The translations under genes were made by a program, and so were the position numbers. DNA of 64,000 nt from Prochlorococcus sp. AG-418-M08. Lineage in GTDB: Bacteria; Cyanobacteriota; Cyanobacteriia; PCC-6307; Cyanobiaceae. Positions 1,742 to 56,404 of this stretch are shown here, in pieces. The notes under the pieces were generated by a model. It was not told where the DNA came from and did not search any database. It saw only the letters and a list, made by a program, of their open reading frames with translations. Every line of letters begins with the position of its first letter. Position 1 is the stretch's first letter. The DNA lies in contig QCMG01000003.1 of NCBI GenBank assembly GCA_003213955.1, positions 9,769 through 73,768 on the forward strand, written 5' to 3'.

Positions 1742-1746
1742 AATAA

Positions 1747-2334
1747 TTGGAAATAATTGCCCATAGAATAAATACTATTGATCAATTAAAAAATTTAAAT
1801 ATTAACTTAGGAGTAGAGGTTGATATTAGATCTAATGAGAAAAATTTAATTATAAGTCATGATCCATTTTCAGATTACATAAATTTTAAAGACTGGTTAT
1901 CTTTTTATAATCATGGAACTTTAATATTGAATGTAAAAGAAAATGGTTTAGAAGAGGAATTGCTTAAAACAATGCATTATTTTAAGAAAGAGAATTTTTT
2001 TATTCTTGATCAATCATTCCCTTACCTTATAAATACAATAAAAAACGGTGAGAACAGATGTGCAGTAAGGTTATCAGAATATGAATCTATTAAAACTGTT
2101 TTATCTTTAAAGGGCAAAATAAATTGGGTTTGGATTGATTTCTTTACAAAATTCCCAGTAGATTTAGAAATTTATAAAATCTTAAAAAAACATAACTTCA
2201 AATTATGTATTGTTTCTCCAGAATTACAAGGACATACAAATTCAAAATGTTTGGATTTAAAAAATTATCTCAAATCTAATGAAATGTGCTTTGATGCTGT
2301 TTGTACAAAGAAAATTAAATTTTGGGCAGAATGA
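1747..2334 (+). CDS. Glycerophosphodiester phosphodiesterase / PLC-like TIM-barrel protein
   Basis: IIAHRIN, GVEVDIR, ISHDP and LNVKE motifs match the GDPD-like pattern; TTG start. Confidence 0.7.
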   Translation: MEIIAHRINTIDQLKNLNINLGVEVDIRSNEKNLIISHDPFSDYINFKDWLSFYNHGTLILNVKENGLEEELLKTMHYFKKENFFILDQSFPYLINTIKNGENRCAVRLSEYESIKTVLSLKGKINWVWIDFFTKFPVDLEIYKILKKHNFKLCIVSPELQGHTNSKCLDLKNYLKSNEMCFDAVCTKKIKFWAE

Positions 2335-6426: not shown

Positions 6427-7359
6427 ATGCAAACTATTTGTCCTATCTGCAGTAAGTTTAATTTTTTTAAAATAATTTCTAATTGCAAAGAAAATATACG
6501 TCTTACTGAAAAATCATATAATTACGGAAAATGCTTGAATTGCAATATTATAAGTCTATATCCAACTCCTGATGTACAAAATATTTCAAAGCATTATCAA
6601 TTTTTAAATAAAGAAAAAGAAAAAAATATTTCTAATAAAAAAACATTAGATCTCCTTTTTAAGATTAAAGATTATTATCAGAATAAAAAAAATATTAAAA
6701 ACACTCTTAGAAAAATTTTGAAATTTGGAGAAGAAGACTTTCCATATTTAGATAAGATCCGAGGAAAAAAATTACTTGATTTAGGAGCTGGAAATGGTTT
6801 TTTTTCATTGGCTGCAGAAAAAAAAGGGTTTCATGTTACTTCTATTGAACAAAACAAAAGTTCAATTAATTTTGCAAAAAGAATAGGTATAAAAATGATA
6901 GAAAGTGATATCAGCTCAAAAATATCTATGCAATATGCCTCAGAAGTTGATAACGTTATTTTGAATCACGTTTTCGAACATATTATTGATCCATACAATT
7001 TCTTGTCGATTTTACGGAAGAACATATCAAATCAGACTAGGGTTGTTATTTTAATTCCAAATGCAAATTCTATTTGGAGATTTGTTTTTAAAGAAAAGTG
7101 GTATGGGTGGGATCCTCCAATTCATGTACACTTGTATAACAAAAAAGCACTAGAAATTATTGTAAAAAATTCAGGTTTTAAAGTTGAACATTTATCTGCT
7201 ATAAATCGTATTGATTCTTTTTATGCTGCTTTAATACATGCAGGCAAAAATCCAAAAAATTTAAAACTAATTTTAAGACTTTTTATCTTTTCAATTCAAC
7301 CATTTTTAAAAATATTTAATTTAGCTCCAGAGTTATTATGCATAATTTCAAAAAAATAA
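6427..7359 (+). CDS. Class I SAM-dependent methyltransferase with N-terminal Cys motifs
   Basis: CPIC...CLNC, LLDLGAGNG, HVFEHI, IPN and PPIH. Confidence 0.85.
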   Translation: MQTICPICSKFNFFKIISNCKENIRLTEKSYNYGKCLNCNIISLYPTPDVQNISKHYQFLNKEKEKNISNKKTLDLLFKIKDYYQNKKNIKNTLRKILKFGEEDFPYLDKIRGKKLLDLGAGNGFFSLAAEKKGFHVTSIEQNKSSINFAKRIGIKMIESDISSKISMQYASEVDNVILNHVFEHIIDPYNFLSILRKNISNQTRVVILIPNANSIWRFVFKEKWYGWDPPIHVHLYNKKALEIIVKNSGFKVEHLSAINRIDSFYAALIHAGKNPKNLKLILRLFIFSIQPFLKIFNLAPELLCIISKK

Positions 7360-7615
7360 AAAAGTTTTTCCTTATAATTTCAGAATTTTTTGAAAAGATC
7401 ATTTGAAAATTAATAAGTCAATTAAAGAAAAAAAAACATAATAGATCATTTATCCCGACTATTTATAACTTTTAACAAATATTCAACAATTGAAGCAGAG
7501 TAGATTGGAATCCTACTAAATAGGAAATAAGATTAAAATTATACTTGTATATAAAAATTAATAGCATAATTCTGTTATAATATCCATCAAATTTATAAAA
7601 TACTAGTAACGATAA

Positions 7616-12536: not shown

Positions 12537-13044
12537 ATTTAATTTTATTAAATTTAGAGATTTTAATATAAATAGTAAAATTATAAAGACATTAGATTAA
12601 CAAATTTAGAAAATCTTTAAATATTTATTTACAACTAGTTAAAAGAAGGTAAATATATTTTGCCATAAAAATATACTAGAGTATTTTAATTTCATTTAGA
12701 CTAATCAAGATGAAATCAATAATCCTAAGCATTTCAGAGGAATTTTATGGCATGGTCGCAAATTCCATAATAGGTAAAAAAAGTTAGTATATTCAATTAC
12801 CATAAAATCATTAGATAATTAAATAGAATATAAATTAAATAAATTATTATCAGTTATTGATTAATAATGAGTGTTGTTTGATTTACTTAAGTAATAAGTT
12901 TTTCTAATTTTAAAAATAAATTAATGGTCATGGATTATGCAGTTTAGATTAGTCATTTTTTTAATACTAAATAATTAATTATTATATTGAAAATTGTTTT
13001 TAAAGAAATTTTTCTTAAAATATAGTTAAACTTGTTTTTTTAAA

Positions 13045-40046: not shown

Positions 40047-40194
40047 TAAATTTTTTGCAAATCCAAGCTAAATTTTTCATTTACACAATAAAATAATTTC
40101 ATGGTAGAAAATCCTTATAATTAGCCTTGAAAAGTACTTATAAAAATTATCTAATTATATTCCAGACAAATTTATTTAACTAGTAATATTTTGA

Positions 40195-40267
40195 TGGAGC
40201 CAAGCGGACTTGAACCGCTGACCCCCTGCATGCCATGCAGGTGCTCTACCAACTGAGCTATGGCCCC
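40195..40267 (-). tRNA. tRNA-Ala (anticodon GGC)
   Basis: Reverse complement GGGGCCATAGCTCAGTTGGTAGAGCACCTGCATGGCATGCAGGGGGTCAGCGGTTCAAGTCCGCTTGGCTCCA folds as a 73-nt cloverleaf with a G3-U70 pair and GGC anticodon; CCA is not encoded. Confidence 0.98.
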
Positions 40268-40633
40268 ATATCCTAAGACAACAGTTATAGAGATTTATCC
40301 AAAGATTTCTTTAGTAACTGCCGATATTTTTATAGTACTTTATAGAGTTTGGCAAATGGATTCTGCGCCTAAAAATGCTCTCAGAGATTTACAAGTTGTA
40401 GCATGCTTTATGGTACTTATTAAAGATATTACTCACCTTCTTTTAAATCGATAATTGTGCATTGTAGGGCTTTAAATTTTACTATTCTACTTGTTTTTTT
40501 AAAGATTTTTAACTTTCATTAATTCAATCTAATATCTCTGACTTTTTATTTAGCATGGTGTTGATTAATTACTAAATCTAAAAAGTAAAAAATTTAATAT
40601 TATAAATGTTAGGATTAGTAAATTTGAAAATTG

Positions 40634-41461
40634 ATGTCTACAGTAGTTTTCACTTCCAATTCTTTGAGACATAAAGCATTTGCAGCAATAATAAATAACA
40701 ATCCAAATATCGATTTATTAAAAGTTTTTCATGAAGACGGGTCCCCCCTTAATGAATTGATTAAGAAAAGGGAAAAAAATATTATTGAGTTAGGACATCT
40801 AGAAGCAAGATCTATTGCGGAAAAAGATTTTTTTGAATTATATATTAATTCTCAAAACAAAATACAAGCTATCTCAGAAATTGTTCCAAGATCCTGGTTC
40901 TCCAGTAAAGCTTGTCTTGAGATTTTAAAAGAATTAAATCCAAGTCAAATTTTGGTCTATGGAACTTCAATAATAAAAGGTGAAATAATTAATTATTTTA
41001 AAAAGAAGATTTTAAATCTACATCTAGGTCTGAGCCCTTTTTATAGGGGTGCAGGTACTAATTATTTTCCCTTTGTTAATAATGAACCTGAATATGCAGG
41101 AAGTACTTTTATGTATCTTGATCAAGGCATTGATACTGGGGAAATCATTCATCAATTTAGACCATTAATTAATATAAATGATTCATTTCATCAATTTTCA
41201 AATAGATTTCTAATTAGTTCTTTTAAGACCTACTCAAAAATTGCTGAGAGAAATTTGAAATTTGGTTTATGTGAACCATTTTCAACTAATAATATTAAAA
41301 ATAAAAAAAGGCTAGTCTATAAGAAATCTGATTTTACTAGTGAAAGCGTAATTAAATTGTATAAGAATCTAAAAAACGGTATGCTTGATAAATATCTTCT
41401 TAATAAAGAAGAGAAATGCAATAATGTCCCTATTCTCCAACAAGATTGGCTTGAAGTTTAG
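40634..41461 (+). CDS. N10-formyl-THF-dependent formyltransferase (sugar N-formyltransferase-like)
   Basis: YGTSIIK, NLHLGLSPFYRG.GTN and LDQGIDTG.II.Q. Confidence 0.85.
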   Translation: MSTVVFTSNSLRHKAFAAIINNNPNIDLLKVFHEDGSPLNELIKKREKNIIELGHLEARSIAEKDFFELYINSQNKIQAISEIVPRSWFSSKACLEILKELNPSQILVYGTSIIKGEIINYFKKKILNLHLGLSPFYRGAGTNYFPFVNNEPEYAGSTFMYLDQGIDTGEIIHQFRPLININDSFHQFSNRFLISSFKTYSKIAERNLKFGLCEPFSTNNIKNKKRLVYKKSDFTSESVIKLYKNLKNGMLDKYLLNKEEKCNNVPILQQDWLEV

Positions 41462-41466
41462 AATTG

Positions 41467-42408
41467 ATGAAAGCATTAATGTACCATTATGTAAGGAAAT
41501 TCAATTCTAATTTTCCTTTCTCAAAACATAAGAAAATTGAAGATTTTGTAAATGAAATAAAAAACTTAATTAGCTTAGGCTACAAATTTAAAAATGTAAC
41601 AGAAGCAATTAAATCCCTTGAAACAGAGGAAGATACTCAGAAGATAATATTACTAACTTTCGATGATGGACTAAAAGACCATTTTAATGTAGCTAAGATA
41701 TTAAACAATTTAGGTATTAAAAAAGCGACATACTATATACCTACTAAACCATATTTAGACAACAAAATTCTTCATGTCCATAAGGCACATTTAATATTAT
41801 CTAAAGAGGGAGAAAAATCATTAGACTTACTTTTTGAAGCATGTAATAATTTAGGAATTTCATTATCAGATCATAGTAACTATAAGGTTGAAAAAGAAAA
41901 ATTCAAAAATGCTTATTCAAGATGGGATACCAATTCAAAAATAAAAGAGTTTAAAAGTTTAATTAATTATTATGGATCAATTGGAGTTAGGGATTTACTA
42001 CTAGATGAAATAATAAGCCAAATAGGAATTAAATTAAAAGCAAATGATTTATATCTTTCATTTAATGAGATTAAAGAAATATCTGAAATGGGATTTGAAA
42101 TAGGAAGTCATGGAGTAAGCCATACGTTACTAGCAAGATTAGATAAAAATACCCAAAAAGAAGAATTATATAATTCAAAGAAATTACTCGAAGAATTAAC
42201 TTCTAGAAATATAAATTCATTTTGCTATCCTTATGGTGGTAAAAAAAGTTATAACAAATATACTTTAGAATTATTTAAAGAAGTTGATTATCACAATGCC
42301 ATATCAGTAGAAAATAAAGATATAAATAAAGAAACTATTAAAAATAATTTTTTTGAAATTCCTAGATATGATTGCAATCAGATTAAAGATTTATTTTTAA
42401 AGAAATAA
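41467..42408 (+). CDS. Polysaccharide deacetylase (CE4/NodB)
   Basis: LMYHYVR, LTFDDG..DH, IGSHG.SH..L, FCYPYG and PR.DC. Confidence 0.9.
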   Translation: MKALMYHYVRKFNSNFPFSKHKKIEDFVNEIKNLISLGYKFKNVTEAIKSLETEEDTQKIILLTFDDGLKDHFNVAKILNNLGIKKATYYIPTKPYLDNKILHVHKAHLILSKEGEKSLDLLFEACNNLGISLSDHSNYKVEKEKFKNAYSRWDTNSKIKEFKSLINYYGSIGVRDLLLDEIISQIGIKLKANDLYLSFNEIKEISEMGFEIGSHGVSHTLLARLDKNTQKEELYNSKKLLEELTSRNINSFCYPYGGKKSYNKYTLELFKEVDYHNAISVENKDINKETIKNNFFEIPRYDCNQIKDLFLKK

Positions 42409-42842: not shown

Positions 42843-44144
42843 TCAATAACTACTTAATGCCGAATGATAAGCCTCAATATACTTTTTAGCAATAATTCTT
42901 GAATCCCAATATTTTTTAGCTTTTAATCGTGCTTGTGATGAAAGTTTTTTATTTCTTTCTTCATCCTCTAAAATCCAATTTATACCATATGCTAAAGATT
43001 TAGGATCATATGGATCAGCCAAATATCCAGTTTCTTGATGACTAACAATATCAATTAAACCTCCAATCTTGAATGCTGCAACAGGTGTTGCGCATGCATG
43101 AGCTTCAGATGCCGTTTGACCATAAGATTCTTGTATAGATGGAACGACCATTACATCTGCTGCTGAATAAACAACTCTAAGAGATAAATCATCATTAAAA
43201 GAACCTAAGAAATCTATTGGCAAATTATCTATAAATTCCTTATTACTTTCTTCTCCAAAAACTAAAATTTGAATTTTATGTTCAATATCTTCAAAATAAG
43301 AATCTCTCAAAATATTTAAAGCCTCTTTTAAGATATGAGATCCTTTTCTGGTATCTTTAGTCCCACCAATTGCTCCAAATAAAATAACTTTCTTATTTTT
43401 ATCAATGCCTAGTATATTTTTAGCATGTAATTTATTGATAGGCATCCAATGTTTTGTATTTATTGGATATGGTATTAAATGTATTGGCCAATTCATCATT
43501 AATGAACTTTTTTTTACGCACTCAAATAACCAATTAGATGTCGCTACTATATTTATTGGTTTTGTCCAGGATCTTTTCTTTCTCTTCCAAGTCCATCTAT
43601 TTATGTCAAATCCGTTTTCGTCAAAAATCCTACTTTTTGATGAATAATTTTCTCTATATCTAAAATCATTAATTTCTATGCCATTCTTATTAATAGGTGG
43701 ATGAGTATAATGCTCAGCTCCACAAAAAGGCCATTGATCATGTAATGTCCAAAAAATTGGGCCTTTTAATTTTCCTATTTCCTCAATTGATATTGTATTA
43801 TCCCCTAACCAATGAAGATGGGTTATTTCATTAGATGAATTATTGCTATTTATTTCTTTTAATAATCCAGTGTTTGGATAAGCAATACTATGAGCTGATT
43901 GATTCGATGTTTTAAAATTACTTTTTAAAAATCTCGATATTCTTGGTTGCAATCTTTTCCACAAATATGAATTATTTTTTAAAGAAATAACTTTTGGATC
44001 ATAACTATACTTCTTAATAACCTTCATCGAAGAATCTATTGAATAATCACTTTTACAATCTTCAAGACATCTATGGATTCTATAAGCAGCTCTAGAAGCT
44101 CCGCCAATTAAATCGTTATTACTTAAATGCACTATAGATAACAT
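42843..44144 (-). CDS. GT4 glycosyltransferase
   Basis: GGASRAAYR.H, WTLHD.WPFCG..H, RKG and ESYGQTASEA..C.TPV. Confidence 0.92.
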   Translation of the reverse strand: MLSIVHLSNNDLIGGASRAAYRIHRCLEDCKSDYSIDSSMKVIKKYSYDPKVISLKNNSYLWKRLQPRISRFLKSNFKTSNQSAHSIAYPNTGLLKEINSNNSSNEITHLHWLGDNTISIEEIGKLKGPIFWTLHDQWPFCGAEHYTHPPINKNGIEINDFRYRENYSSKSRIFDENGFDINRWTWKRKKRSWTKPINIVATSNWLFECVKKSSLMMNWPIHLIPYPINTKHWMPINKLHAKNILGIDKNKKVILFGAIGGTKDTRKGSHILKEALNILRDSYFEDIEHKIQILVFGEESNKEFIDNLPIDFLGSFNDDLSLRVVYSAADVMVVPSIQESYGQTASEAHACATPVAAFKIGGLIDIVSHQETGYLADPYDPKSLAYGINWILEDEERNKKLSSQARLKAKKYWDSRIIAKKYIEAYHSALSSY

Positions 44145-44279
44145 TAATGTTATTAGAACATAAATTCAATCTTACCCTATTTTCACTACTTAAGTAAGTA
44201 AACTATTTACTCTAAAAGTTAATTATTATTTTGAATATTTATATATAAAGAGAAAAACTTTTTTTCTAACTTTTCATTT

Positions 44280-45413
44280 CTATAAGACTTTTATTAAATT
44301 AGTTATTGTTCTATCCCAAGTAAAACTTTTATGTTGCCTTAAAAGTTTTTTTCTTAAACTTATATATTTTTCATAGGGATTGAAAATATCAATAATCCAA
44401 CTATAAACAATTAAAGGACTTGGATTAGCATCGAACATCTTCCCAAAATTAGATTTTGGTAAAGTTGAAGAAATACCTCCAACATCATGGCAAATTACTG
44501 GAACACCAAGTATTAAACATTCTCTATTAGATATTCCAAAAGCCTCAGCTTTTGAAAATAGAGTCCCAAAGTGCCAAGATTTCAATTCTTCGATAAAAAG
44601 ATCTAAATTTAAAAATTTATCTATAAATCCAACATACTTTATGCTGGGATGGTTAGGAACAGTATTCTTTTTAGGTCCAATTACTCTAATTTCAAAAGGA
44701 ACATTATTTTGATTAAAAGTATCCGCTAATTTTATTAAGAAATTACCACCTTTTCTTTCCCAATCAAGACCAATAAAGCCAACAATTATAGGATTATTAG
44801 TAGAAGGTTCTGGGGGCGTTAATAGTAACTTGCTTCTATCAATTTTTGTTGTATCTAAATTTGCACCTCCAGGTACAAGAGAAATTTTAGATTTATCAAT
44901 TTTATAATCTTTGATTAATGATTTAATTGCCCAACTTGAACGGCAAATAATTTTATTGGCTCTTAAATAATTTAATTTTTCTCGATTAATTATCTCACTT
45001 TTATAAGAATTACTTATTAGATTAGAGAGTCTATATTCATCAAGTATTTGTAATAGAGTGGCGTCGATATAAAAATATACATCCCATTTTTGAGGCCATG
45101 GATAACTTGGTAAAAGTTGATAAATACTAAATATAGTTAATTCTTGATCTTCTAAATATCTTATTTGCTTAATTAACTTTTTTGAATAAACTTCACTCCA
45201 TTGAAACCCTTGAGGTTTTCCATACTTCAAGAATTGTATAAAGTTCCATATTAATTTCCAATACTTTAACTTTTGATAATCAAGACTAATCGCTTTATCT
45301 ATCAATCCATATTGTTTTCCAGTTTTAAAAAAATTATATGGTAACCCTCCGTGAGTAGTATATGAATTAGCATCTCCATTACATATTAAATATCTTTTAT
45401 TTAATTTTTTCAT
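44280..45413 (-). CDS. GT4 glycosyltransferase
   Basis: PGGANL, FIGLDWERKGG and EAFGISNRE...GVPV. Confidence 0.9.
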   Translation of the reverse strand: MKKLNKRYLICNGDANSYTTHGGLPYNFFKTGKQYGLIDKAISLDYQKLKYWKLIWNFIQFLKYGKPQGFQWSEVYSKKLIKQIRYLEDQELTIFSIYQLLPSYPWPQKWDVYFYIDATLLQILDEYRLSNLISNSYKSEIINREKLNYLRANKIICRSSWAIKSLIKDYKIDKSKISLVPGGANLDTTKIDRSKLLLTPPEPSTNNPIIVGFIGLDWERKGGNFLIKLADTFNQNNVPFEIRVIGPKKNTVPNHPSIKYVGFIDKFLNLDLFIEELKSWHFGTLFSKAEAFGISNRECLILGVPVICHDVGGISSTLPKSNFGKMFDANPSPLIVYSWIIDIFNPYEKYISLRKKLLRQHKSFTWDRTITNLIKVL

Positions 45414-45890
45414 AAAATATAAATATTGTTTTTATAAGAATAATGCTTTAAGGGTAAAATCATAATTAATAATATTTAAAAGTTTATTAGAAGCACTCTT
45501 TTAATAAGATAAAAAATAACTTTTTTAATATTGATTTATTTAAAAAAATGACTATTTAAAATTTACTTTAAGTTTTATCTTTGGTAAAGGTGCAAGACAA
45601 GAATTTTTAAAACCAATTTAAATTTTAATTAAATATTACGCTCCTAATCATATGAACTTCATTTATTCGGAATAAATACATATGGGGCAAGCTAGATTTT
45701 TCTTACAATATTTAAGAATAAATACGAATCAACCTATATTTAATTCATACCAAGAATTTATATTATTTTTAATAATGAGATACATAATCGAATAATTATT
45801 TTTTGAGTATGTTTAGCTTAAATATCAACTGGAAATTAATTCCATAATATTTTAATATAGTTTCTTAATAAGCATAATTTATTTCTAAAA

Positions 45891-46832
45891 TTGGAAAAAT
45901 TACATCCTGATTTAAGAACCAAAATTATAGCTCTTGCATTATTTAAATCATGTAGACCAAAACAATGGACAAAGAACTTTCTAATTTTTGCAGTTATTTT
46001 ATTTTCTTTTATCTTTAATAAATTAGTATTTATTAATTGTTTATTAGGCTTTATAAGTTTTTGTTTTATTTCATCTTCAATTTATTTATTTAACGATATT
46101 AAAGATATATCAAAAGACAAACTACACCCTAAAAAAAAGTTCAGACCTATTCCTAATGGAAAATTACCCATAAATATAGCTATCAAAAGCTCTATTTTAT
46201 TAGCATTTATAAGTCTTATCTTTGGTTATTTAATATCATTTAAATTTTTTATAATAATTATTATTTATGGGATTATCCAAATCGCATATTGTTTAAGATT
46301 TAAAAAAGAACCAATTTTAGATGTTTTATGCATTGCATCAGGTTTTATGCTGAGGGCTCTTTCTGGAGTCGCAGCTTCAGAAATAGGTTTTTCTCCTTGG
46401 TTTATTTTAACTATTGGTCTTTTAGCATTATTTCTTGCTGTTGAGAAGAGAAAAGCTGAATTAAACTTTTACATCAAGGAATCTATATTAACCAGAGAAA
46501 TATTAAAGAAATATACTTTGCCTCTTCTCGAACGATATGCCAATTTATTAGCCACAAGTACTTTTATTAGTTATAGTTTATGGGCTGCAGGACCATCATT
46601 AAACGGTGCACAATCTTCATGGATGTTATTATCTATACCTTTTGTTCTAGTTGGTATTTTTAGATATCAATTCATAAGTGATAATAAAATTTCAAGCATA
46701 AGGAAAGCTCACGGCAATTATATTTCTACAGAAAATCCAGAGTTAATTTTGCTTTATGACAAAGGGATTCGATTTTCAATTATTGGATGGTTACTAACAA
46801 TTATATGCGTAGGACTATTTCTCACTTACTAA
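45891..46832 (+). CDS. Polyprenyl-phosphate phosphoribosyltransferase (UbiA family, DPPR synthase-like)
   Basis: RPKQWTKN, Y..NDI.D...D..HP.K..RP...G, D...IA.GF.LR..G and KRKAEL. Confidence 0.9.
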   Translation: MEKLHPDLRTKIIALALFKSCRPKQWTKNFLIFAVILFSFIFNKLVFINCLLGFISFCFISSSIYLFNDIKDISKDKLHPKKKFRPIPNGKLPINIAIKSSILLAFISLIFGYLISFKFFIIIIIYGIIQIAYCLRFKKEPILDVLCIASGFMLRALSGVAASEIGFSPWFILTIGLLALFLAVEKRKAELNFYIKESILTREILKKYTLPLLERYANLLATSTFISYSLWAAGPSLNGAQSSWMLLSIPFVLVGIFRYQFISDNKISSIRKAHGNYISTENPELILLYDKGIRFSIIGWLLTIICVGLFLTY

Positions 46833-46897
46833 TAATTTATATTCTAAAAAGGTTTAAAACATATTAAATTAAGATCATTCTAAAAAGAATTTGAAAC

Positions 46898-47836
46898 ATG
46901 AAAATTTTTATTCCTGGAGGTGCTGGATTGGTAGGCATAAATCTAATAGCAGCTATTAAAGAAAAATATCCAAAATGGGAACTAATAGTTGTTGATAAGA
47001 AATATCGTTCAATAAAAGTTGCAGAAGAAATTTTTCCAGATGTTAAATTTATTTGTGAGGATTTAACTAATGATATTAATCAAAGCTGGCCTTTAGAAAT
47101 TAAAGAATGCGATGTTTGTATAATGCTTCAAGCTGAAATTGGATCAAAAAGATCAAATTTATTTGAATTAAATAATGTTTTCTCTACCAAAATAATATTA
47201 AAGCAACTGAAGATTGCAGGAATTGAAAGAGTGATACATGTAAGCAGTTCAGTGGTTAATTCAAAAAGTGATGATTTATATACTGTCACTAAAAGGAAAC
47301 AAGAATTACTCGTTGCTGATATTTTTCCAAAATGCGTCGTTTTAAGACCTACTTTAATGTTTGGATGGTTTGATAGAAAACATCTTGGTTGGTTAGCAAA
47401 TTTTATGGTCAAATATCCTTTTTTTCCAATCCCTGCGAAAGGAGACTTTGTAAGACAACCACTATTCGTTGGTGATTTTTCCTCTATAATAATAAGTTGT
47501 ATTATAGATTCATCCATTACCGGAAAATATAATATATCTGGTTTAGAAAAAATTAAATATTTAAAACTAATGAGAATGCTAAAGGAAATTAAATCCTCAC
47601 AAATTTTCTTTATCCATTTACCAATACCAATATTTGCTTTTTTATTAAAGATTTGGTCTTTAATTTCAGAAAATCCTGCCTTTACTACTTCACAACTATA
47701 TTCACTTATTGCTGGGGATCAATTTGAAATTATAGATTGGCCAAATATTTTTAATGTAAAATCTACACCATTTAAAGAAGCATTAAAAATAACTCACAAA
47801 CATAAAAAATTTAGCAAAATAAATATACCATTTTAA
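46898..47836 (+). CDS. NAD-dependent epimerase/dehydratase (atypical SDR)
   Basis: PGGAGLVG, HVSSS, Y..TK..QE, LRPTLMFG and QPL.V.DF. Confidence 0.85.
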   Translation: MKIFIPGGAGLVGINLIAAIKEKYPKWELIVVDKKYRSIKVAEEIFPDVKFICEDLTNDINQSWPLEIKECDVCIMLQAEIGSKRSNLFELNNVFSTKIILKQLKIAGIERVIHVSSSVVNSKSDDLYTVTKRKQELLVADIFPKCVVLRPTLMFGWFDRKHLGWLANFMVKYPFFPIPAKGDFVRQPLFVGDFSSIIISCIIDSSITGKYNISGLEKIKYLKLMRMLKEIKSSQIFFIHLPIPIFAFLLKIWSLISENPAFTTSQLYSLIAGDQFEIIDWPNIFNVKSTPFKEALKITHKHKKFSKINIPF

Positions 47837-48133
47837 TTAAATTAATTCATTTTGAAAAACATTTTTATCATAGATAACTTAATAATATAAAAAAAGAACA
47901 TAAGCAAAAGTATTAAATTAAATCGATATCTAGTTAGAAAATATTTTAAAAATCAAAAAATATAGAGTAAAAATTTCAAAATAAAATAAAAATAACTTAA
48001 AATAATCTAGGAAAAAAGATCCATGAATATAAAATCTTTGGTGATAGATTAAAATGAGATTAAATATTATTCAAGTTAATTATGGATTAGAATATCAAAA
48101 TAAATTATCTTAGTAAATCAGTCATATATTCCT

Positions 48134-48868
48134 ATGAAGGATAATTATTTCAAGAGTGCATTTATACTTGGAGGGACAAGTACTATAGCTAAATCGATAT
48201 GTATAAAATTGGCTGAAAATGGTTGTAAAAAGTTTCATCTCGTTAGTAGAGATCCAGCAGCAAACAAACAATTAGTAGAGAAATTAAGAATTTTTTATAA
48301 ATCTGAAGTTACTGAAGAAAAGAATGATTTGTTATTAAATAATTCTTTGATAAACAACTTCAAACCAAAGGTAGACTTTTATGACATTTATTTAATAGCT
48401 CCAGGATTAATTGGGAATAATAATCTTGCCAATTCAAATTCAAAAGAGGCACTTAAAATTAGTTCGATAAATTATACAGGCATTATTCCATGGCTGATAG
48501 AAATAATGACTGAAAATCGAATTAAATATAAAGGTAGTTTGTGGGTCTTAAGTTCTGTCGCATCAGATAGAGGTAGACCCTCAAACTATCATTATGGTGC
48601 CTCTAAGGCAGCATTATCTATTTTCTGTGAAGGGCTTCTTCTACGCTGTGTTAATAAACCTTTTTCAGTAAGAATTATAAAAGCAGGATATATAACTTCT
48701 CCGATGACTGATGCGGCACCTAAGTTTCTTTGTACTTCTCCAAATAGAGTTGCCTCTATACTTTTAAAGAATCCTTATAAAAGAGGGATCGAATATCTTC
48801 CATGGTGGTGGAATTTAATTATGATTGCAGTTCGTAAATTACCTTCTTATTTAGCCGCAAAATTATGA
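48134..48868 (+). CDS. DprE2-like SDR (polyprenyl-phospho-2-keto-pentose reductase)
   Basis: ILGGTS.IA, NY.G, SSVA.DRGR.SNY.YGASKA and IK.G...SPMT. Confidence 0.85.
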   Translation: MKDNYFKSAFILGGTSTIAKSICIKLAENGCKKFHLVSRDPAANKQLVEKLRIFYKSEVTEEKNDLLLNNSLINNFKPKVDFYDIYLIAPGLIGNNNLANSNSKEALKISSINYTGIIPWLIEIMTENRIKYKGSLWVLSSVASDRGRPSNYHYGASKAALSIFCEGLLLRCVNKPFSVRIIKAGYITSPMTDAAPKFLCTSPNRVASILLKNPYKRGIEYLPWWWNLIMIAVRKLPSYLAAKL

Positions 48869-50244
48869 CAGAAAATTTAAAAAATTTTTCTAAAACTATT
48901 TCAGGATGGGGTCGCAACTCAAAAGCTTTAGTAAAAATTCTAAATCCTAAAAACAAAGAAGAATTACAAGACATTATTACAAATTCAAAAAAAAATTCTC
49001 TTATTGCGAGAGGTCTTGGAAGATCTTATGGCGATGCTGCTCAATTAAATAAAGGATCTGTTATTAATCTGGCTTATTTTCAAAATATTTATTTAAATAA
49101 AGCGAAAGGAATTGTAATTGTTGGAGGTGGAGTTAGCTTTAACGACTTGTTAAAAAAAATAATCCCAGAGGGATTTTTCTTGCCAGTTTCTCCAGGGACA
49201 AGAAATGTGACAGTTGGAGGCGCTATCGCTGCAGACGTTCATGGTAAAAATCACCATGTAAATGGCAGCTTTGGTAATCATGTAATTAATTTATTAATAG
49301 TAGATGGTTTAGGCCAAATTAAAAGTCTAAGTCCTAGAAAAAATGCGAATAAATCTGAAAAGGACAAATTTTGGGCGACCATAGGGGGTATGGGTTTAAC
49401 AGGAGTAATTATTGAAGCATCATTCTCTCTTATTCCTATTAAAACTTCAAAAATTAGTGTAGACACCTCAAGACACAAAGATATTGATTCTCTCATGGAA
49501 GAGATGATTATTTGCGATAACAAATTTCAATATAGTGTTGCCTGGTTGGACACACTTAATAAAAGCGGGAGAGGAATTCTTACTTGTGGTAATCACGCTA
49601 GCCCTGAACAACTAAAAAAGAAATTTGAAATTGATAATCCTTTAGGCTATTTGCCAAAATCATTAGCTACTGCTCCTCCTTTCATACCTAATGGTATTTT
49701 AAATAGATTAACAGTAAATGCTTTCAATGAAGCATATTTTAGAAAAGCTCCAAAATCAAAAAAACAAGAATTACAAGACATAACAAGTTTTTTTCATCCT
49801 CTTGATGGCATTCAAGAATGGAATAGAATATATGGCCCAAAAGGATTTCTTCAATACCAATTTGTAGTTCCTGATAGCTCAGCAAATTTAATAAAAGAAT
49901 CTATTGAGATATTTAGAAAAATTGGAATACCTAGTTTTCTTACTGTATTAAAAAGATTTGGGGAAGGAAATTATGCTTTTCTATCATTTCCTAAAAAAGG
50001 ATGGACTTTAGCTGTAGATATTCCATTATCTATACCTAAGCTTGATAGAACATTATTTGAATTAGATATAAAAATAGCTGAAGCTGGGGGAAGAATATAT
50101 TTAGCAAAAGATTCTAGACAATCTTCAGATATTCTCTCACTAACATATCCTAAATTAAATGAATGGAAAGTAATACAAAAATCAATGGATCCAAAAAGAA
50201 TTTTCTCTTCTGATTTAGCAATGCGACTGAATTTAATTAAATAA
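48865..50244 (+). CDS. DprE1-like FAD-linked oxidase (polyprenyl-phosphoribose 2'-oxidase)
   Basis: GWGR, RGLGRSYGDAA, PVSPGT..VTVGGAIA.D.HGKNHH..GSFG, FLQYQFVVP, FL.VLK.FG and GGR.YLAKDSR. Confidence 0.92.
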   Translation: MTENLKNFSKTISGWGRNSKALVKILNPKNKEELQDIITNSKKNSLIARGLGRSYGDAAQLNKGSVINLAYFQNIYLNKAKGIVIVGGGVSFNDLLKKIIPEGFFLPVSPGTRNVTVGGAIAADVHGKNHHVNGSFGNHVINLLIVDGLGQIKSLSPRKNANKSEKDKFWATIGGMGLTGVIIEASFSLIPIKTSKISVDTSRHKDIDSLMEEMIICDNKFQYSVAWLDTLNKSGRGILTCGNHASPEQLKKKFEIDNPLGYLPKSLATAPPFIPNGILNRLTVNAFNEAYFRKAPKSKKQELQDITSFFHPLDGIQEWNRIYGPKGFLQYQFVVPDSSANLIKESIEIFRKIGIPSFLTVLKRFGEGNYAFLSFPKKGWTLAVDIPLSIPKLDRTLFELDIKIAEAGGRIYLAKDSRQSSDILSLTYPKLNEWKVIQKSMDPKRIFSSDLAMRLNLIK

Positions 50245-50443
50245 ATACTATATTAAAACTCTGAAATTTTATTCCCTATACTTGTAAAATTTTATGTATA
50301 TTTTCTAAGTAAACTTGTTATTGCATAAATTTAATTTTGATATTTTAATAAATAATCCAAGTAAATTTTTTATGATTGCGATAATTTACTAATGAAAGGT
50401 TACATTATATTGAATATATTGATAATTTTTTTAAATTAATTCA

Positions 50444-51619
50444 ATGCAACGATCTCTAAGAAAGAATTCAATAATTATAGGTTTTTTAAGTTGGATATTT
50501 AGTATTTTCCTTTTTTCCCCAAGATTAACTCTTTTTCTTGGGGAAGGATCTGGAACCACACGTCGAGATGATATTTTAGCGCAGTGTTTTGACCCTTTCA
50601 CAAAAAATCTTAAAGAGCCGATACTAGCTTATCGTATTATTCAGCCATCAATAGCTAAAGCTTTGGGATGGTGCGGTGAAAAACGTGAATTCTTAGCCTT
50701 ATTGGGATCCCCAGGAATTGCATATATCACACTAATCTTAACTCTTATAATTTTAAATTTATCTTTAAAAAAGAGATTCAGTAATAGTTTGTCCCTATTA
50801 GCTACTTTCGGATTAGCTACTACTCACTTAACGCAATGGGTAAACACGCATTGGGGACATCCTGATTCATTAACCTTTTTACCTATTAGTCTATTGATGA
50901 TGTCTCGTCAGCCAATACTTATAATTATTGCTACTTCAATTGGATGCATTAATGATGAGAGAATTATCCTTTCATTACCTTTTATATTGCTTTGGTGGTG
51001 GCCAAAAAACAAATCATGGAATCAAAGCCTAAAAAATCTTTTCCCATTAATTTTGTCTTCCTTTATTGGAATAGCTATAGCTTTTTTTATCAAAGTATCT
51101 TTACAACAAGGATTAATTGGTCCAGGGATCTTTGAACCTTATGAAGTAGATACTATTAATGGATATTTTCGGATATTTAATCCTTCCAATTGGTTGGGAT
51201 TGGCTTTTATGGTTTTTCTTGGATTTAGATGGCTCTGGATTATTCCTATCTTTGCTTTAGTGATTCTCTTCAAAGGTAGGTTATCTCTTCGATCATTTAT
51301 ATTTATTATTTCATCTTTACTTGCTATTTTAGCAACTTTTACAGTGGCAGATGTGAGTCGGTCATGTGCATTCTTTTTCCCTATGATTCCTGTTGCTATG
51401 GAAATTCTTAAAGATCAATCTACTTGGTCTGAATCAAAATTAAAATTTTGGATTAGTTGGATTATTGGCCTAAATGTCATAACACCTGCTTTAAAAGTTT
51501 ATGGTATACCTCCCGATTGGTGGGCTGTTAGTCCTCTTGAATGGGCAACTCCTGCACTACCTCTTCCAATTAATATGTGGAAATGGCTTACTTCTCCAAA
51601 TGGAGCAATTACTTGGTAA
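50444..51619 (+). CDS. Polytopic membrane protein, putative GT-C glycosyltransferase
   Basis: About 10 hydrophobic segments, an early periplasmic-type loop (RRDD, YRIIQP) and acidic residues (HPDS, NDER); sits within the DPA-type cluster. Confidence 0.5.
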   Translation: MQRSLRKNSIIIGFLSWIFSIFLFSPRLTLFLGEGSGTTRRDDILAQCFDPFTKNLKEPILAYRIIQPSIAKALGWCGEKREFLALLGSPGIAYITLILTLIILNLSLKKRFSNSLSLLATFGLATTHLTQWVNTHWGHPDSLTFLPISLLMMSRQPILIIIATSIGCINDERIILSLPFILLWWWPKNKSWNQSLKNLFPLILSSFIGIAIAFFIKVSLQQGLIGPGIFEPYEVDTINGYFRIFNPSNWLGLAFMVFLGFRWLWIIPIFALVILFKGRLSLRSFIFIISSLLAILATFTVADVSRSCAFFFPMIPVAMEILKDQSTWSESKLKFWISWIIGLNVITPALKVYGIPPDWWAVSPLEWATPALPLPINMWKWLTSPNGAITW

Positions 51620-52035
51620 TAAATAAGTATTTTGAAGGCATTTTTTTTATTTGGTAATTATCTATTCATTGGCACCAGTCTTATTATAAATTTTTTAGAC
51701 TTGAATATAATTAATTTGAATTTAATTTTTTATATTACTAATCATAATTCTAAGACAAAGTAAATCCTTAGAAAAATTTTTATTTATGGATTTTTCTATT
51801 CAAATATTTAATTTATTATTAAAAATTTGGAAGAATTACAAAATTGAATCTTTATCTATTTCAAGAATTTGTATATTTTCGCTAAAGTTTTATATAAAAT
51901 TGTAATTTTTTCACTTATTATTATTGAAAGGTAGATATCTATAAAGAAGACTTAAAGATATCCAAAAGTGATTAACAATATAGCTAAATTATGATTGATC
52001 CTACCTCTAAATAATTCTTAAAATTCATTATTAAA

Positions 52036-53331
52036 ATGAGAGTTAAATCAGATAAAGTTGCTGTAATTGGTGCCGGACCAATGGGGCTCGCAGTAGCTTA
52101 TGAATTAATTTTAAAAGGTTATAAGCCAGAGATTTTTGAAGCTGATAATAGATTAGGCGGAATGGCAGCATCATTTAATTTTGATGGATTAGAAATTGAA
52201 AGATATTACCATTTTCACTGTCTAAATGACTATGCATTTTTTGATTTACTTGATGAAATAGGACTAAAAAAAGAATTAAGATGGAAAAAAACTAAAATGG
52301 GTTTTTTTTACCAAAATAAATTATATAAATGGGGGTCTTTAAGTTCAGTATTATTTTTTAATAAAGTTTCAATACTTACAAGAATTAGATATCTTTTACA
52401 TGCTTTAAGATGTCTCACAAAAAAAGACTGGAATAATTTAGATAAAATTTCAGCAATTGATTGGTTAAAAAATTGGCTTGGTAAAGAGGGTTACAATATT
52501 TTATGGGAGAAACTGTTCGTATATAAGTTTTATAATTTTTCTGGAACAATTTCTGCCGCATGGATTTGGAGCAGAATCAAGAGATTAGGAAGATCAAGAA
52601 AAAAGTTAATAGAAAATCTTGGTTATCTAAACAATGGATCTTTAGAACTTATAAATAAATTAGAAAAAATAATAAAAAATAACGGAGGGGTCATACACCT
52701 ATCCAACCCAATTTTATGTATTAATCCAATAAAAAATGGAGGAGCGCAATTAAAATCATTTAATAAAACAGATTCCTATGATAGTGTCATATCTACAATT
52801 CCTATTCCACTTCTAACTAAAATATTTAAAGCAAGCAGAATCAATAGACGCATTATTAAAAATTATGAGAAAACCATATCCATAGCATGTGCATGCGTAA
52901 TTTTAAAAACCAGCAAAAAAATAACAACTAATTTCTGGACGAACATAAATGATGATAGATTCTCAATACCAGGGATAGTTGAAATGAGTAATTTGAGAGA
53001 ACTTAATGCTCATATTATTTATGTGCCATTTTATATGCCCACAAATCATCCTAACTATTTAAAATCCAATGAAATTCTTATCAAAGAGGCATGGGATTGC
53101 GTTAAAGCAATAAATCCAAATTTAGAAGATAAAGACTTAATAAGTTCATGTTGTAATCGGTATAAATATGCACAGCCAGTTATTTGCACAGAATATAAAA
53201 AAAATTTGCCATCACAAGAACCATTTAAGAGGATATTTACAGTAGATACAACTTTCTATTATCCAGAAGACAGAGGAATTAGCGAGAGCATTGGATTAGG
53301 AAGAGATTTAGTAAGAAATAATTTTGAATAA
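52036..53331 (+). CDS. NAD(P)/FAD-dependent oxidoreductase (amine oxidase/HemY-like fold)
   Basis: VIGAGPMGL......L...G....IFEA..RLGGMA, ERYYH, AQP and YP.DRG. Confidence 0.88.
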   Translation: MRVKSDKVAVIGAGPMGLAVAYELILKGYKPEIFEADNRLGGMAASFNFDGLEIERYYHFHCLNDYAFFDLLDEIGLKKELRWKKTKMGFFYQNKLYKWGSLSSVLFFNKVSILTRIRYLLHALRCLTKKDWNNLDKISAIDWLKNWLGKEGYNILWEKLFVYKFYNFSGTISAAWIWSRIKRLGRSRKKLIENLGYLNNGSLELINKLEKIIKNNGGVIHLSNPILCINPIKNGGAQLKSFNKTDSYDSVISTIPIPLLTKIFKASRINRRIIKNYEKTISIACACVILKTSKKITTNFWTNINDDRFSIPGIVEMSNLRELNAHIIYVPFYMPTNHPNYLKSNEILIKEAWDCVKAINPNLEDKDLISSCCNRYKYAQPVICTEYKKNLPSQEPFKRIFTVDTTFYYPEDRGISESIGLGRDLVRNNFE

Positions 53332-53407
53332 GAAAATATGTAAAAATTTCTTTATTATTTCGAAAATATATAATTACTTTTTACTTAAATATTTTTGACA
53401 TTTTAAA

Positions 53408-53857
53408 TTATTTTTTCTTTTTAAAAACAAAAAACTTCATCATTATAAAATTAAATAAAGCAGAAATTAAAGTTGCTACAAAAAAAGAAATTAGAATACT
53501 AATTGTTTCTTTATTTTGAAGTAAGTGAAGTGAAAAGCTGTTAGAAAAAATATTAAGTCCTAAAGAAATTGAATAAACTAATGAAAAAAATAATGGAGTT
53601 GATTTTTTTGCTTTTACATTAAAAGTTATATTTTTATTTCCATAATAAGAAAAAACTGCTCCCATTATAAAACTAACAAACTTTGAAAATTTGATTGAAC
53701 CAGTGAAATAAAATAGAAATAAATAAGACAACGTATCAATTAATACTGAGGTTATCCCAATAATTACAAAAAAAATAGATTCTTTTTTAGTTGAGGAATG
53801 AGGGATCACCTCAAGAAGATTTTTACCTTTTTGTCGGAATTTATTATAGGTCTTCAT
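53408..53857 (-). CDS. GtrA-family membrane protein (lipid-linked sugar flippase)
   Basis: Four hydrophobic helices, F..IG....LID, NK..TF and NF...K.FVF. Confidence 0.88.
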   Translation of the reverse strand: MKTYNKFRQKGKNLLEVIPHSSTKKESIFFVIIGITSVLIDTLSYLFLFYFTGSIKFSKFVSFIMGAVFSYYGNKNITFNVKAKKSTPLFFSLVYSISLGLNIFSNSFSLHLLQNKETISILISFFVATLISALFNFIMMKFFVFKKKK

Positions 53858-53921
53858 TTATAAAAATTTTTTCACTTTTAAGATCTGAAAAAAGAAATTT
53901 ATAAGTAATTTCTTCAAACTA

Positions 53922-55322
53922 TTATGTTGTGCCTAAAGTCCATACTTTGAAACCAATATCTTCTAATCTTTCTTTATCTAAACAAATCCTTGAATCAAAA
54001 ATCCATGCAGGTTTTCTCATTACCTCAAAAATATTCTTCCAATCTAAGTCTATAAATTCTTCCCAATCTGTTAGTACTAAAATAGCGTCAGCTTGTTGAG
54101 CAGCTTTAAAAGCCGAATCACTAACCACGACATTATTTTCATTTATTATCTCATTGAATTCTATTAATATTTCCTTTTCACTAACTTGAGGATCAAAAAA
54201 ATTTAATTTTGCACCTTCCTGGAGTAAGTTTTTAGAAATATTTATACTTGGAGATTCTCTCTTATCATTTGTATTAGCCTTAAATGAAAATCCAAATATT
54301 GCTAATTTTTTATTAGTTAATGTTCCAAATAAATTTCTGATTACCAAAGATGATATTCTTTTTTGCTGCCATGTATTAATATCAACTACTTTTTCCCAGT
54401 AATCTGCCACTTCATTTAATCCATAGTATCTACATAAATATACAAGATTTAAAATATCTTTTTTAAAACAACTTCCTCCAAAACCAGGTCCTGATTTCAA
54501 AAATTTTTTCCCTATTCTTGTATCAGTTCCAATTGCTTTAGCTACTTCATTAATATTAGCTCCAGTCACCTCACAAAGTGCAGAAATAGAATTTATGGAT
54601 GAAAGTCTTTGAGCTAAAAAAGCATTAGCAACTAATTTTGATAACTCTGAACTCCATAAATTTGTGGTTATTATCTTTTCTGGATTTACCCAATTTTTAT
54701 ATATATCAGATATTAAATTAATTGAATCATCATCCTCTCCACCAATTAAAACTCTATCAGGATTTTGGAGATCGTTAATAGCAGAACCCTCGGCAAGAAA
54801 TTCAGGATTAGATATTATTGAAAAAGTTTGACTTTTATTATCTACAGATGAGTCATTATTATGTTCAGCTGTATTTAAAATTGTTTTTATAGTTTCAGCG
54901 GTTTTTACTGGTAAAGTACTTTTTTCAATGACAATTGTATGGTTTTTTGAAAATTTAGCTATTTGTCTTGCTGAAGATTCTATCCATTTCAAGTCACTTG
55001 CGTAACCAGCTCCAACACCTCTTTTTTTTGTTGGTGTATTTACTGATATGAAAATTATATCTGCTTTAGCAATATTTTCTTCTACTTTTGTTGAAAAGAA
55101 AAGATTTTTTCCTCTACACTTCTTAACTATTTTTTCTAAGCCAGGCTCAAATACTGGCAACTTAGATAAATCCTCATTATTCCAAGCATTAATTCGCTCA
55201 GGATTTAAATCTACTACGTTAACTTTCCAGTCAGGACAGTTCAATGCTATTACTGACATAGTTGGGCCTCCAACATATCCAGCACCAATGCAACAAATAA
55301 TCTTATTTAGTTTATTTTTCAT
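53922..55322 (-). CDS. ugd: UDP-glucose 6-dehydrogenase
   Basis: IGAGYVGGP, EKSTLP, SNPEFLAEG, GFGGSCFKKD and FKANT.D.RES. Confidence 0.97.
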   Translation of the reverse strand: MKNKLNKIICCIGAGYVGGPTMSVIALNCPDWKVNVVDLNPERINAWNNEDLSKLPVFEPGLEKIVKKCRGKNLFFSTKVEENIAKADIIFISVNTPTKKRGVGAGYASDLKWIESSARQIAKFSKNHTIVIEKSTLPVKTAETIKTILNTAEHNNDSSVDNKSQTFSIISNPEFLAEGSAINDLQNPDRVLIGGEDDDSINLISDIYKNWVNPEKIITTNLWSSELSKLVANAFLAQRLSSINSISALCEVTGANINEVAKAIGTDTRIGKKFLKSGPGFGGSCFKKDILNLVYLCRYYGLNEVADYWEKVVDINTWQQKRISSLVIRNLFGTLTNKKLAIFGFSFKANTNDKRESPSINISKNLLQEGAKLNFFDPQVSEKEILIEFNEIINENNVVVSDSAFKAAQQADAILVLTDWEEFIDLDWKNIFEVMRKPAWIFDSRICLDKERLEDIGFKVWTLGTT

Positions 55323-55477: not shown

Positions 55478-56404
55478 ATGAAAAGAAATTTAGTTACTGG
55501 CGGTAGTGGCTTCTTGGGATCACATTTGTCAAAAAGATTATTAGAAAGAGGAGAAGAAGTAATTTGTATAGATAATTTTTTTACTGGAACTAAAAAAAAT
55601 ATTGAGCCACTTATAAATCATCCCTATTTTGAACTTATAAGACATGATGTCACAGAACCAATAAAAATTGAGGTAGATAAAATTTGGCATTTAGCGTGCC
55701 CTGCTTCTCCAATTCATTATCAATTTAATCCGATAAAAACGACTAAAACAAGTTTTTTAGGAACGTATAACATGTTGGGATTAGCAAAAAGAGTTGGGGC
55801 AAAGTTTTTATTAGCTAGTACGAGTGAGGTTTATGGAGATCCTGAAGAACATCCTCAGACAGAATCTTACAAGGGCTCTGTAAATACAACTGGGATAAGA
55901 AGTTGTTACGATGAAGGGAAAAGAATTGCAGAAACTCTTTGCTCAGATTACAAAAGAGTTAATGGCGTTGATACGAGAATAATGAGAATATTTAATACCT
56001 ATGGACCAAATATGAGATTTGATGATGGAAGAGTAGTAAGCAACTTTATAATTCAAGCTTTAAAAAATGACAAAATTACACTTTATGGGGACGGGGAACA
56101 AACTAGATCATTTTGTTATGTTGATGATTTAATTGAGGGAATGATTCTTCTTATGGAAAGTAATTATCAGATGCCAATGAATATTGGAAATCCAAAAGAA
56201 TTTTCAATAAAAGAATTAGCTTATTTAGTGAGAGATTTAATAAATCCTAATTTGGAATTTGAATATAAAGACTTGCCTCAAGATGACCCTAAACAGAGAA
56301 AACCTTCTATTGTATTGGCTAAGAAAGTTTTGAATTGGGAACCTAAAATTGTATTAAAAGAAGGGCTTATAAAAACAATCAAATGGTTTAAAAGTAATTT
56401 ATGA
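55478..56404 (+). CDS. uxs: UDP-glucuronate decarboxylase (UDP-xylose synthase)
   Basis: [55 protein letters not shown] and DDP.QRKP. Confidence 0.95.

Follow-up and report, generated by a model that had tools for sequence, protein, structure and literature searches.

Systems in which a pentofuranose is carried on polyprenyl phosphate and added to a glycan as a side chain have been described, with homologues of DprE1 and DprE2 wherever arabinofuranose (Araf) is present (PMC11127046, Kelly et al.). In Citrobacter youngae O1/O2 the system comprises ORF15 (PPPRS-PRP), ORF14 (a MATE flippase) and ORF12 (GT136) (PMC11127046). The mycobacterial decaprenylphosphoryl arabinose (DPA) pathway has Rv3806c, Rv3807c, the pair DprE1/DprE2, Rv3789 and the Aft and Emb glycosyltransferases of fold class C (GT-C). 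Pseudomonas (para)aeruginosa has the cluster PsPA7_6245–6251 with TfpW, and the Gtr-type systems of Shigella and Salmonella (GtrA, GtrB, Gtr*) glucosylate the O-antigen. Here we study a related cassette of six genes in Prochlorococcus sp. AG-418-M08. It is found in a stretch of 64,000 nucleotides (contig QCMG01000003.1, positions 9,769 to 73,768), which we call the window and whose numbering we use throughout. On balance we think that this cassette makes polyprenyl-phospho-D-arabinofuranose and adds the pentofuranose to a surface glycan, as a decoration which varies from strain to strain.

The logic in common with Citrobacter is a polyprenyl-phosphate pentofuranose derived from phosphoribosyl pyrophosphate (PRPP), one or more optional epimerases, flipping, and transfer by a GT-C enzyme to a finished or growing glycan; in both cases it is an add-on which sets related strains apart. 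With the mycobacterial pathway the locus shares a PRPP-type UbiA protein with the same residues, a DprE1 above the equivalog cut-off which is coupled to a DprE2-like short-chain dehydrogenase/reductase (SDR), a GtrA-family protein nearby and a transferase of probable GT-C fold. As in Pseudomonas, UbiA, GtrA, DprE1 and DprE2 are found in one cluster of a Gram-negative genomic island. The likeness to the Gtr-type systems lies in a small add-on which would decorate a glycan from a polyprenyl-phosphate sugar, with a GtrA-family protein and a GT-C enzyme, serotype-specific in the Gtr-type case. However, the donor would come from PRPP through UbiA and epimerases, while in Gtr-type systems it is made by a family 2 glycosyltransferase (GT2, GtrB). 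Unlike them, the cassette has no prophage context that we could see. It also differs from the mycobacterial pathway in its host, a Gram-negative phototroph, and in being accessory, whereas mycobacterial DPA is essential. By analogy, the cassette appears to join the logic of the side-chain systems (PMC11127046) to the mycobacterial epimerase pair and would behave like a serotype-converting add-on. A search of the literature for a DprE1, decaprenylphosphoryl or phosphoribosyltransferase pathway in cyanobacteria (Prochlorococcus, Synechococcus) found nothing relevant.

The host genome has 1.66 Mb in 29 contigs and is 98.8% complete; its G+C content is 25–30%, and that of the window 20–37%. The locus under study covers positions 45891–53857, with seven open reading frames (ORFs) between 45.9 and 53.9 kb. 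The cassette has the following features, all genes being on the + strand:

~45420–53400, + strand: six-gene pentofuranose cassette, an insertion when compared with a cassette-less relative
45891–46832, + strand: UbiA-type polyprenyl-phosphate 5-phosphoribosyltransferase, Rv3806c-like, 313 aa (NF008978)
46898–47836, + strand: extended SDR, NDUFA9-like, 312 aa (Pfam Epimerase, 8.5e-8)
47994–48021, no strand: deletion scar at the place of the cassette GtrA (comparison with contig L016)
48134–48868, + strand: DprE2-like classical SDR, presumed 2-keto reductase (NF053786, below cut-off)
48865–50244, + strand: DprE1, FAD-dependent polyprenyl-phosphate-ribose 2'-oxidase (NF053785, PDB 4aut)
50444–51619, + strand: 391-aa polytopic membrane protein, a probable glycosyltransferase of GT-C fold whose family is undescribed (AlphaFold2 and Foldseek)
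52036–53331, + strand: FAD oxidoreductase of 431 aa with a fold like protoporphyrinogen oxidase (PPOX) and phytoene desaturase (PDS) (NF005560)

A preliminary description of this DNA had named five genes (UbiA, DprE2-like, DprE1-like, a putative GT-C and GtrA), and all five are present where it placed them. It overlooked the extended SDR and the FAD oxidoreductase. The overlap of 4 nt which it reported between dprE2 and dprE1 is real and reads aaattATGAcag: stop and start codons overlap as ATGA. In the gap of 416 nt at 51620–52035 there is no convincing small ORF, and Rfam has no match in 45300–54000. A scan for promoters and terminators gave fewer sites than in shuffled sequence and is therefore uninformative.

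The core of the pathway is the best supported part. The UbiA protein scores 233.9 bits against NF008978 (decaprenyl-phosphate phosphoribosyltransferase), above the equivalog cut-off of 207, and matches the cryo-EM structure of Mycobacterium tuberculosis Rv3806c (PDB 8j8j) with an E-value of 1.6e-40. The residues which bind PRPP, Mg2+ and polyprenyl phosphate in Rv3806c are given in PMC10994848. When the 8j8j alignment is compared with that list, 9 of the 11 functional residues are kept: K28 and K191, which bind polyprenyl phosphate, N73 and D77, which bind Mg2+, and the pyrophosphate cluster R22, K87, R90, Y138 and K143. The only departures are Y157, which is Phe, and K208, which is Glu. Among 14 control genomes this family was matched in Corynebacterium glutamicum only, so that the match can be considered a specific marker.

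DprE1 aligns end to end with the Mycobacterium smegmatis enzyme (PDB 4aut, 2.9e-104) and scores 513 bits against NF053785, whose equivalog cut-off is 500. Its residues H126, K128 and K415 correspond to the catalytic H132, K134 and K418 of M. tuberculosis. The cysteine on which benzothiazinone sensitivity depends, to which the preliminary description had drawn attention, is not kept: in the 4aut alignment the mycobacterial Cys387 corresponds to Ala383, and Asn385 to Thr381. Mycobacterial Cys387 variants give a basis for expecting a loss of covalent action, and covalent inhibitors of the benzothiazinone class should not act on the DprE1 of the cassette.

The partner of DprE1 is less clear. The best named relative of the classical SDR is DprE2, with 103 bits against NF053786, below the cut-off of 250; its best family is PRK07102, with 153 bits, likewise under its cut-off. 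Its role is inferred from gene coupling. By BLAST we compared the window with 12–20 kb of DNA surrounding the DprE1 gene of 19 genomes, as well as with loci reached in other ways (L and G numbers are our labels for these contigs and for genomes). Of the 19 DprE1-centred loci, 18 have a DprE2-like SDR directly beside DprE1, and so have the two cassette loci found otherwise; in L051 the two genes are about 1.3 kb apart. UbiA, DprE1 and DprE2 are found together in all 19 and in both of the others. The mycobacterial-type route to polyprenyl-phospho-D-Araf put forward in the preliminary description holds in this core, namely the UbiA residues, DprE1 and the triad of genes; the membership of GtrA does not hold, and the end product may be other than plain D-Araf.

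The cassette is found inside another operon, which has these genes:

53922–55322, - strand: UDP-glucose 6-dehydrogenase (UGDH), first gene of the recipient operon (TIGR03026, 334.6 bits, cut-off 189.8)
53408–53857, - strand: small membrane protein of the GtrA family, which belongs to the recipient operon, candidate flippase (PF04138)
42843–45413, - strand: two family 4 glycosyltransferases (GT4) of the recipient operon, which may build the acceptor glycan (Pfam Glycos_transf_1 for both)

In a relative which has neither cassette nor DprE1 (genome G053, contig L063), UGDH, GtrA, GT4a and GT4b are contiguous. Its GtrA is 81% identical to that of the window and overlaps GT4a by 4 nt, being translationally coupled to it. 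The window is collinear with G053 at 87–89% nucleotide identity, except for 7.9 kb between ~45420 and 53400; the six-gene cassette is therefore an insertion. In a blastn comparison with L063, position 53371 joins directly to 45437. The cassette is inserted between GtrA and GT4a, on the opposite strand to the recipient operon. We saw no direct repeats or target duplication at its ends: an apparent blastn overlap of 48 nt is an A+T-rich extension.

The preliminary description had counted GtrA among the arabinose pathway genes. The window GtrA is a clear member of its family (54.9 bits against PF04138, cut-off 26.1), but it is a gene of the recipient operon, since the order UGDH-GtrA-GT4-GT4 is conserved without the cassette. 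Its relatives in the genus are confined to seven genomes, all DprE1-negative. As a member of the cassette it is ruled out by this synteny.

The cassette had a GtrA of its own. In its closest cassette-bearing relative, L016 (Prochlorococcus sp. AG-442-M23), an ORF at 7029–7516 codes for a cassette-type GtrA of 147 aa between the SDR and dprE2, that is, between the synthase and epimerase genes as in Pseudomonas. It has no counterpart between 47993 and 48022 of the window, and the window GtrA is just 26% identical to it. The loss is reciprocal: the window keeps the flank GtrA (53345–53894), while L016 lacks it (12812–12938). With a single GtrA left in each genome, it seems that either of the two can do the work. 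The two GT4 genes are conserved both in L063, without the cassette, and in L016, with it, and in the Synechococcus contig L014 GT4 homologues flank the cassette, one of them overlapping dprE1.

The deletion scar at 47994–48021 might be taken as a sign that the cassette is crippled in this strain and gives no finished product. The same could be said of the lack of an encoded phosphatase in the cassette, and of the lack in this genome of a homologue of the HAD-LPG_synthase_TM protein of sister cassettes, described below. We consider this reading very unlikely. The six ORFs are intact and all of them are under purifying selection: when compared with L016, the ratio of nonsynonymous to synonymous substitution rates (dN/dS) is 0.12–0.20. 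The synonymous rate dS is 0.41–0.58, in the same range as the flanking core genes, so that the cassette genes have been maintained and have diverged together with their surroundings. The second GtrA was retained exactly where the sister genome lost its copy, and one copy is apparently enough. Furthermore, Pseudomonas can do without the phosphatase in its D-Araf system, and ArnE/F can take the place of GtrA (bioRxiv 10.1101/2020.04.19.049825).

The probable transferase is the 391-aa protein, which has no match in Pfam or NCBIfam; none of 44 diverse relatives matches Pfam either. An AlphaFold2 model built from an alignment of 30 relatives has a pLDDT of 83.5 and a pTM of 0.87. When this model was searched against the PDB with Foldseek, GT-C enzymes made up almost all of the top 23 matches, among them AglB, STT3, ArnT, ALG9, EmbB, PglB and PimE. 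Their probabilities are mostly 0.9–1.0, falling as low as 0.47, with weak E-values (best 0.015–0.1) and TM scores of 0.40–0.48. EmbB (6x0o) has an E-value of 0.15; with no match to an Emb or Aft family, the likeness is at the level of the fold only. It is probably a GT-C-fold glycosyltransferase of an unclassified family, unrelated in sequence to mycobacterial Emb or Aft. It is also smaller than the Citrobacter enzyme, and it differs from the latter in having no carbohydrate-binding module and no recognised family. The putative GT-C gene of the preliminary description is thus borne out by its predicted fold, not by a sequence family match.

In the model about 11 helices cross the membrane, and residues 24–88 form a loop with two short helices, which holds R40 and D42 or D43. 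The conserved polar residues are R40, D42/D43, R64, D141, D171-E172-R173 and D303-R306. According to the predicted topology they would be placed on outer-face loops, which fits a site for a polyprenyl-phosphate sugar.

A pattern scan of genome contigs with the GT-C alignment had given three Prochlorococcus loci only; the size of the family was revealed by an exhaustive profile search, with 988 representatives at E ≤ 0.001. In the genus it is found in 5 of 201 genomes. The cassette of Synechococcus L014 has a homologue of 439 aa (27% identity, 5e-21). High-scoring homologues, 49–51% identical, are also present in two DprE1-negative genomes, at 9154–10362 of L052 (G024) and 14103–15311 of L054 (G098); a third DprE1-negative genome has only a distant paralogue type of 437–441 aa. 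In G024 the homologue adjoins genes for a DegT aminotransferase, a nucleotidyltransferase, a dehydratase and a GT2 enzyme. The family is not tied to one donor, since it has members in DprE1-negative genomes beside other sugar modules. In G024 and G098 we also noted a second paralogue of the family (437–441 aa), 10–28 kb away.

The acceptor might be a protein, either type IV pilin or another surface protein, as for the group IV pilins of Pseudomonas (bioRxiv 10.1101/2020.04.19.049825), and the oligosaccharyltransferases AglB, STT3 and PglB are among the top fold matches of the 391-aa model. Nevertheless we find a protein acceptor highly unlikely. The cassette is found inside a GT4/UGDH glycan operon of a large sugar island, while in Pseudomonas a TfpW-like transferase stands beside the pilin gene; no such pair was seen here. 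According to the AlphaFold2 model the 391-aa protein has no periplasmic soluble domain, and its relatives elsewhere are beside nucleotide-sugar and GT2 genes. No pilin family was found among about 40 window ORFs scanned against Pfam, a scan which covered neither every ORF nor the rest of the genome. Given the operon context and the lack of a periplasmic domain, we prefer the glycan of the recipient operon's GT4 enzymes to a pilin as acceptor.

Two more enzymes set the cassette apart from the mycobacterial, Citrobacter and Pseudomonas systems. To describe them we define a close clade as the picocyanobacterial cassettes with a DprE1 at least 53% identical to that of the window (n=8). The flavoprotein is found in all eight, and its gene abuts GtrA in five. 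It scores 427 bits against NF005560 (cut-off 252), and its AlphaFold2 model has a pLDDT of 94.3; the Foldseek matches are PPOX (3lov, 2ive) and PDS (5mog), with TM scores of 0.78–0.81. A structural relative is also known from Methanosarcina mazei (PDB 3ka7). We had considered a UDP-galactopyranose mutase as a candidate for its identity and rejected it: there is no GLF domain, and mutases rank far under PPOX and PDS in the fold search. In the genus the flavoprotein passes the cut-off in 9 of 201 genomes, eight of which have DprE1. The 312-aa SDR keeps the motifs GxxGxxG (GGAGLVG) and YxxxK (YTVTK). It is found in 6 of the 8 cassettes, being absent from L044 and L049. Its nearest PDB entry (1.7e-15) is NDUFA9, the membrane-peripheral 39-kDa subunit of complex I. 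Both proteins appear to be conserved passengers of this clade of cassettes. They look like membrane-peripheral enzymes for lipid-bound, hydrophobic substrates and probably modify the lipid-linked sugar, or else its carrier.

With these two conserved enzymes present, the sugar which is transferred may differ from plain D-Araf. They could form a second oxidase/reductase pair on the lipid-linked sugar, for example for epimerisation at C3 or for an oxidative change. The product would then be another pentofuranose, with xylo or lyxo configuration for instance, or one which is in keto form or modified in some other way. The constancy of the flavoprotein in the clade agrees with this idea: in the genus it accompanies DprE1 wherever the contig allows. 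The same can be said of the intact SDR motifs, of the position of the flavoprotein gene next to GtrA and of the likeness of both proteins to enzymes which work on hydrophobic substrates at the membrane. There is a precedent in Citrobacter youngae O2, where a single SDR turns undecaprenyl-phosphate ribofuranose into xylofuranose (PMC11127046). On the other hand the pair is not obligate, since L044 and L049 have the flavoprotein without the SDR. The NF005560 family is not tied to pentoses either: it passes the cut-off in 2 of 14 control genomes, which we infer to be those of Haloferax volcanii and Methanosarcina acetivorans, and neither shows a UbiA phosphoribosyltransferase. The family therefore seems to have a role wider than this cassette. 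All in all, a donor other than plain D-Araf is rather unlikely. Its most specific form has a smaller chance: that in the DPA-like cassettes of picocyanobacteria and many Gram-negative bacteria the PPOX-like flavoprotein and, where present, the NDUFA9-like SDR are a second redox pair of unrelated fold, which together with DprE1/DprE2 gives an undocumented donor such as D-lyxofuranose (inverted at C2 and C3), delivered by the unclassified GT-C family.

Both enzymes might instead modify the polyprenyl carrier, for example by removing or introducing a double bond in an isoprene unit, so that the donor would still be polyprenyl-phospho-D-Araf on a modified lipid. PDS and PPOX are indeed the closest folds of the flavoprotein. 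The side-hits point in the same direction: HpnE and carotene desaturases in NCBIfam for the flavoprotein; HpnA, OleD and 3-beta-HSD for the SDR. Archaea, in which the flavoprotein has relatives, use modified polyprenol carriers. However, we know of no carrier modification of this kind for bacterial pentofuranose donors, and the close linkage to DprE1-type cassettes and to GtrA favours a sugar-loaded intermediate. The literature on archaeal polyprenol reductases gave no lead on the flavoprotein. A modified carrier is in our view quite unlikely.

The step between UbiA and DprE1 would call for a phosphatase. The cassette differs from the mycobacterial pathway in having no Rv3807c-type enzyme, and its synthase lacks the fused PRP phosphatase of Citrobacter: the UbiA protein has no HAD domain in Pfam, whereas the sister Prochlorococcus contig L045 has a HAD-UbiA fusion. 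For flipping, the sole candidate is of the GtrA family, in contrast to the MATE protein of Citrobacter; the ORFs scanned in 42.8–57 kb include no MATE protein. The Pseudomonas D-Araf system has been found to dispense with or replace both the phosphatase and GtrA (bioRxiv 10.1101/2020.04.19.049825).

Sister cassettes also contain a fusion of a HAD phosphatase with an LPG_synthase_TM (MprF-type) domain, found at 12695–14221 of L014 and in L044, L049, L050, L033 and L041. Such a protein might both remove the 5'-phosphate of the lipid-linked pentose and flip it. The fusion is present in 4 of the 8 cassettes of the close clade, and a cassette-type GtrA is found in all eight save at the analogous positions of the window. 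In L014 the flavoprotein, the 312-aa SDR, the HAD-LPG_synthase_TM protein, GtrA and the 439-aa GT-C-like homologue are all in one operon. Other Prochlorococcus cassettes have different polytopic proteins beside UbiA, one of them a PMT_2 GT-C.

We can now set out how the D-Araf cassette would work. According to its family and residues, UbiA would join PRPP and polyprenyl phosphate to give polyprenyl-phosphate-ribose-5-phosphate, and the 5-phosphate would be removed by a phosphatase from outside the cassette. DprE1, as a member of its family, is expected to oxidise C2'; reduction by the DprE2-like SDR, which is proposed from gene coupling, would then give polyprenyl-phospho-D-arabinofuranose. 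The GtrA of the recipient operon may help to present or flip this donor to the periplasmic face; it must be this one, because the cassette has lost its own copy. On the outer face the 391-aa GT-C-like protein would transfer the pentofuranose to a membrane-proximal acceptor. The likeliest acceptor is a lipid-linked or lipid-anchored polysaccharide made by the neighbouring GT4 enzymes from UDP-sugars.

Several points weigh against this scheme. The GT-C assignment stands at the level of a predicted fold, with weak E-values, and, since its family occurs beside other sugar modules without DprE1, the donor of this protein is a presumed one. The DprE2-like SDR is below the cut-off of its family. The classical pathway has no place for the two conserved redox enzymes. 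There is no phosphatase gene in 45420–53400, either of the Rv3807c PAP2 type or HAD-PRP (PAP2 was not searched for genome-wide), and the HAD-LPG_synthase_TM protein is missing from the genome as said above. The cognate GtrA of the cassette has been deleted in this strain. Finally, we know of no chemical data on any Prochlorococcus glycan.

The cassette is accessory and strain-variable, and the distribution of DprE1 is patchy. Among 201 species-level genomes of the genus, 16 have DprE1, which passes the equivalog cut-off in three of them; among cyanobacteria it is present in 15 of 401 genomes (11 of 155 genera). The genus also has a second, distant clade of DprE1, with 36–38% identity to that of the window (L045, at 7564–8994, L046 and L047). 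In this clade there is a HAD-UbiA fusion, while the flavoprotein and the SDR are absent, and it may well have been acquired independently.

On its right the island is flanked by the core genes lexA, argF, ftsH and ribD, and the 55 kb to the left are crowded with sugar genes. At 40631–42408, beside a tRNA-Ala (40193–40268), a gene with a formyltransferase domain is directly followed by one with a polysaccharide-deacetylase domain. This pair, UGDH (53922–55322) and an SDR at 55478–56404 resemble parts of the Arn (4-amino-arabinose) route. A module for a lipid-carried sugar is found at 2–5132, with a nucleotidyltransferase, a GT2 enzyme, a GDPD-like protein, a GT-C fusion and HAD; it has no GtrA of its own. 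Its counterpart at 6830–13169 of L064 (G052) includes a GtrA of the same subfamily as the one at 53408–53857.

Systems of this kind have been described before and are common among environmental bacteria, and what is new is mainly the host, Prochlorococcus; the conceptual gain is modest, since the pathway type was published in 2024. Prochlorococcus is the most abundant photosynthetic bacterium of the ocean. Its surface-glycan islands are thought to govern killing by phages and grazing, and to our knowledge its surface glycans are almost uncharacterised chemically. The masking of phage receptors, which had been proposed in the preliminary description, is a plausible hypothesis which fits a hypervariable surface island. 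If our interpretation is true, about one in twelve species-level genomes of the genus would bear a PRPP-derived pentofuranose, probably D-Araf, on a surface glycan. Strains with the cassette could be compared directly with cassette-less siblings which have the same acceptor operon. The locus also points to three uncharacterised components which accompany this pathway far outside the cyanobacteria as well: the PPOX-like flavoprotein, the NDUFA9-like SDR and an unclassified family of GT-C-like proteins with about 1000 sequence clusters.

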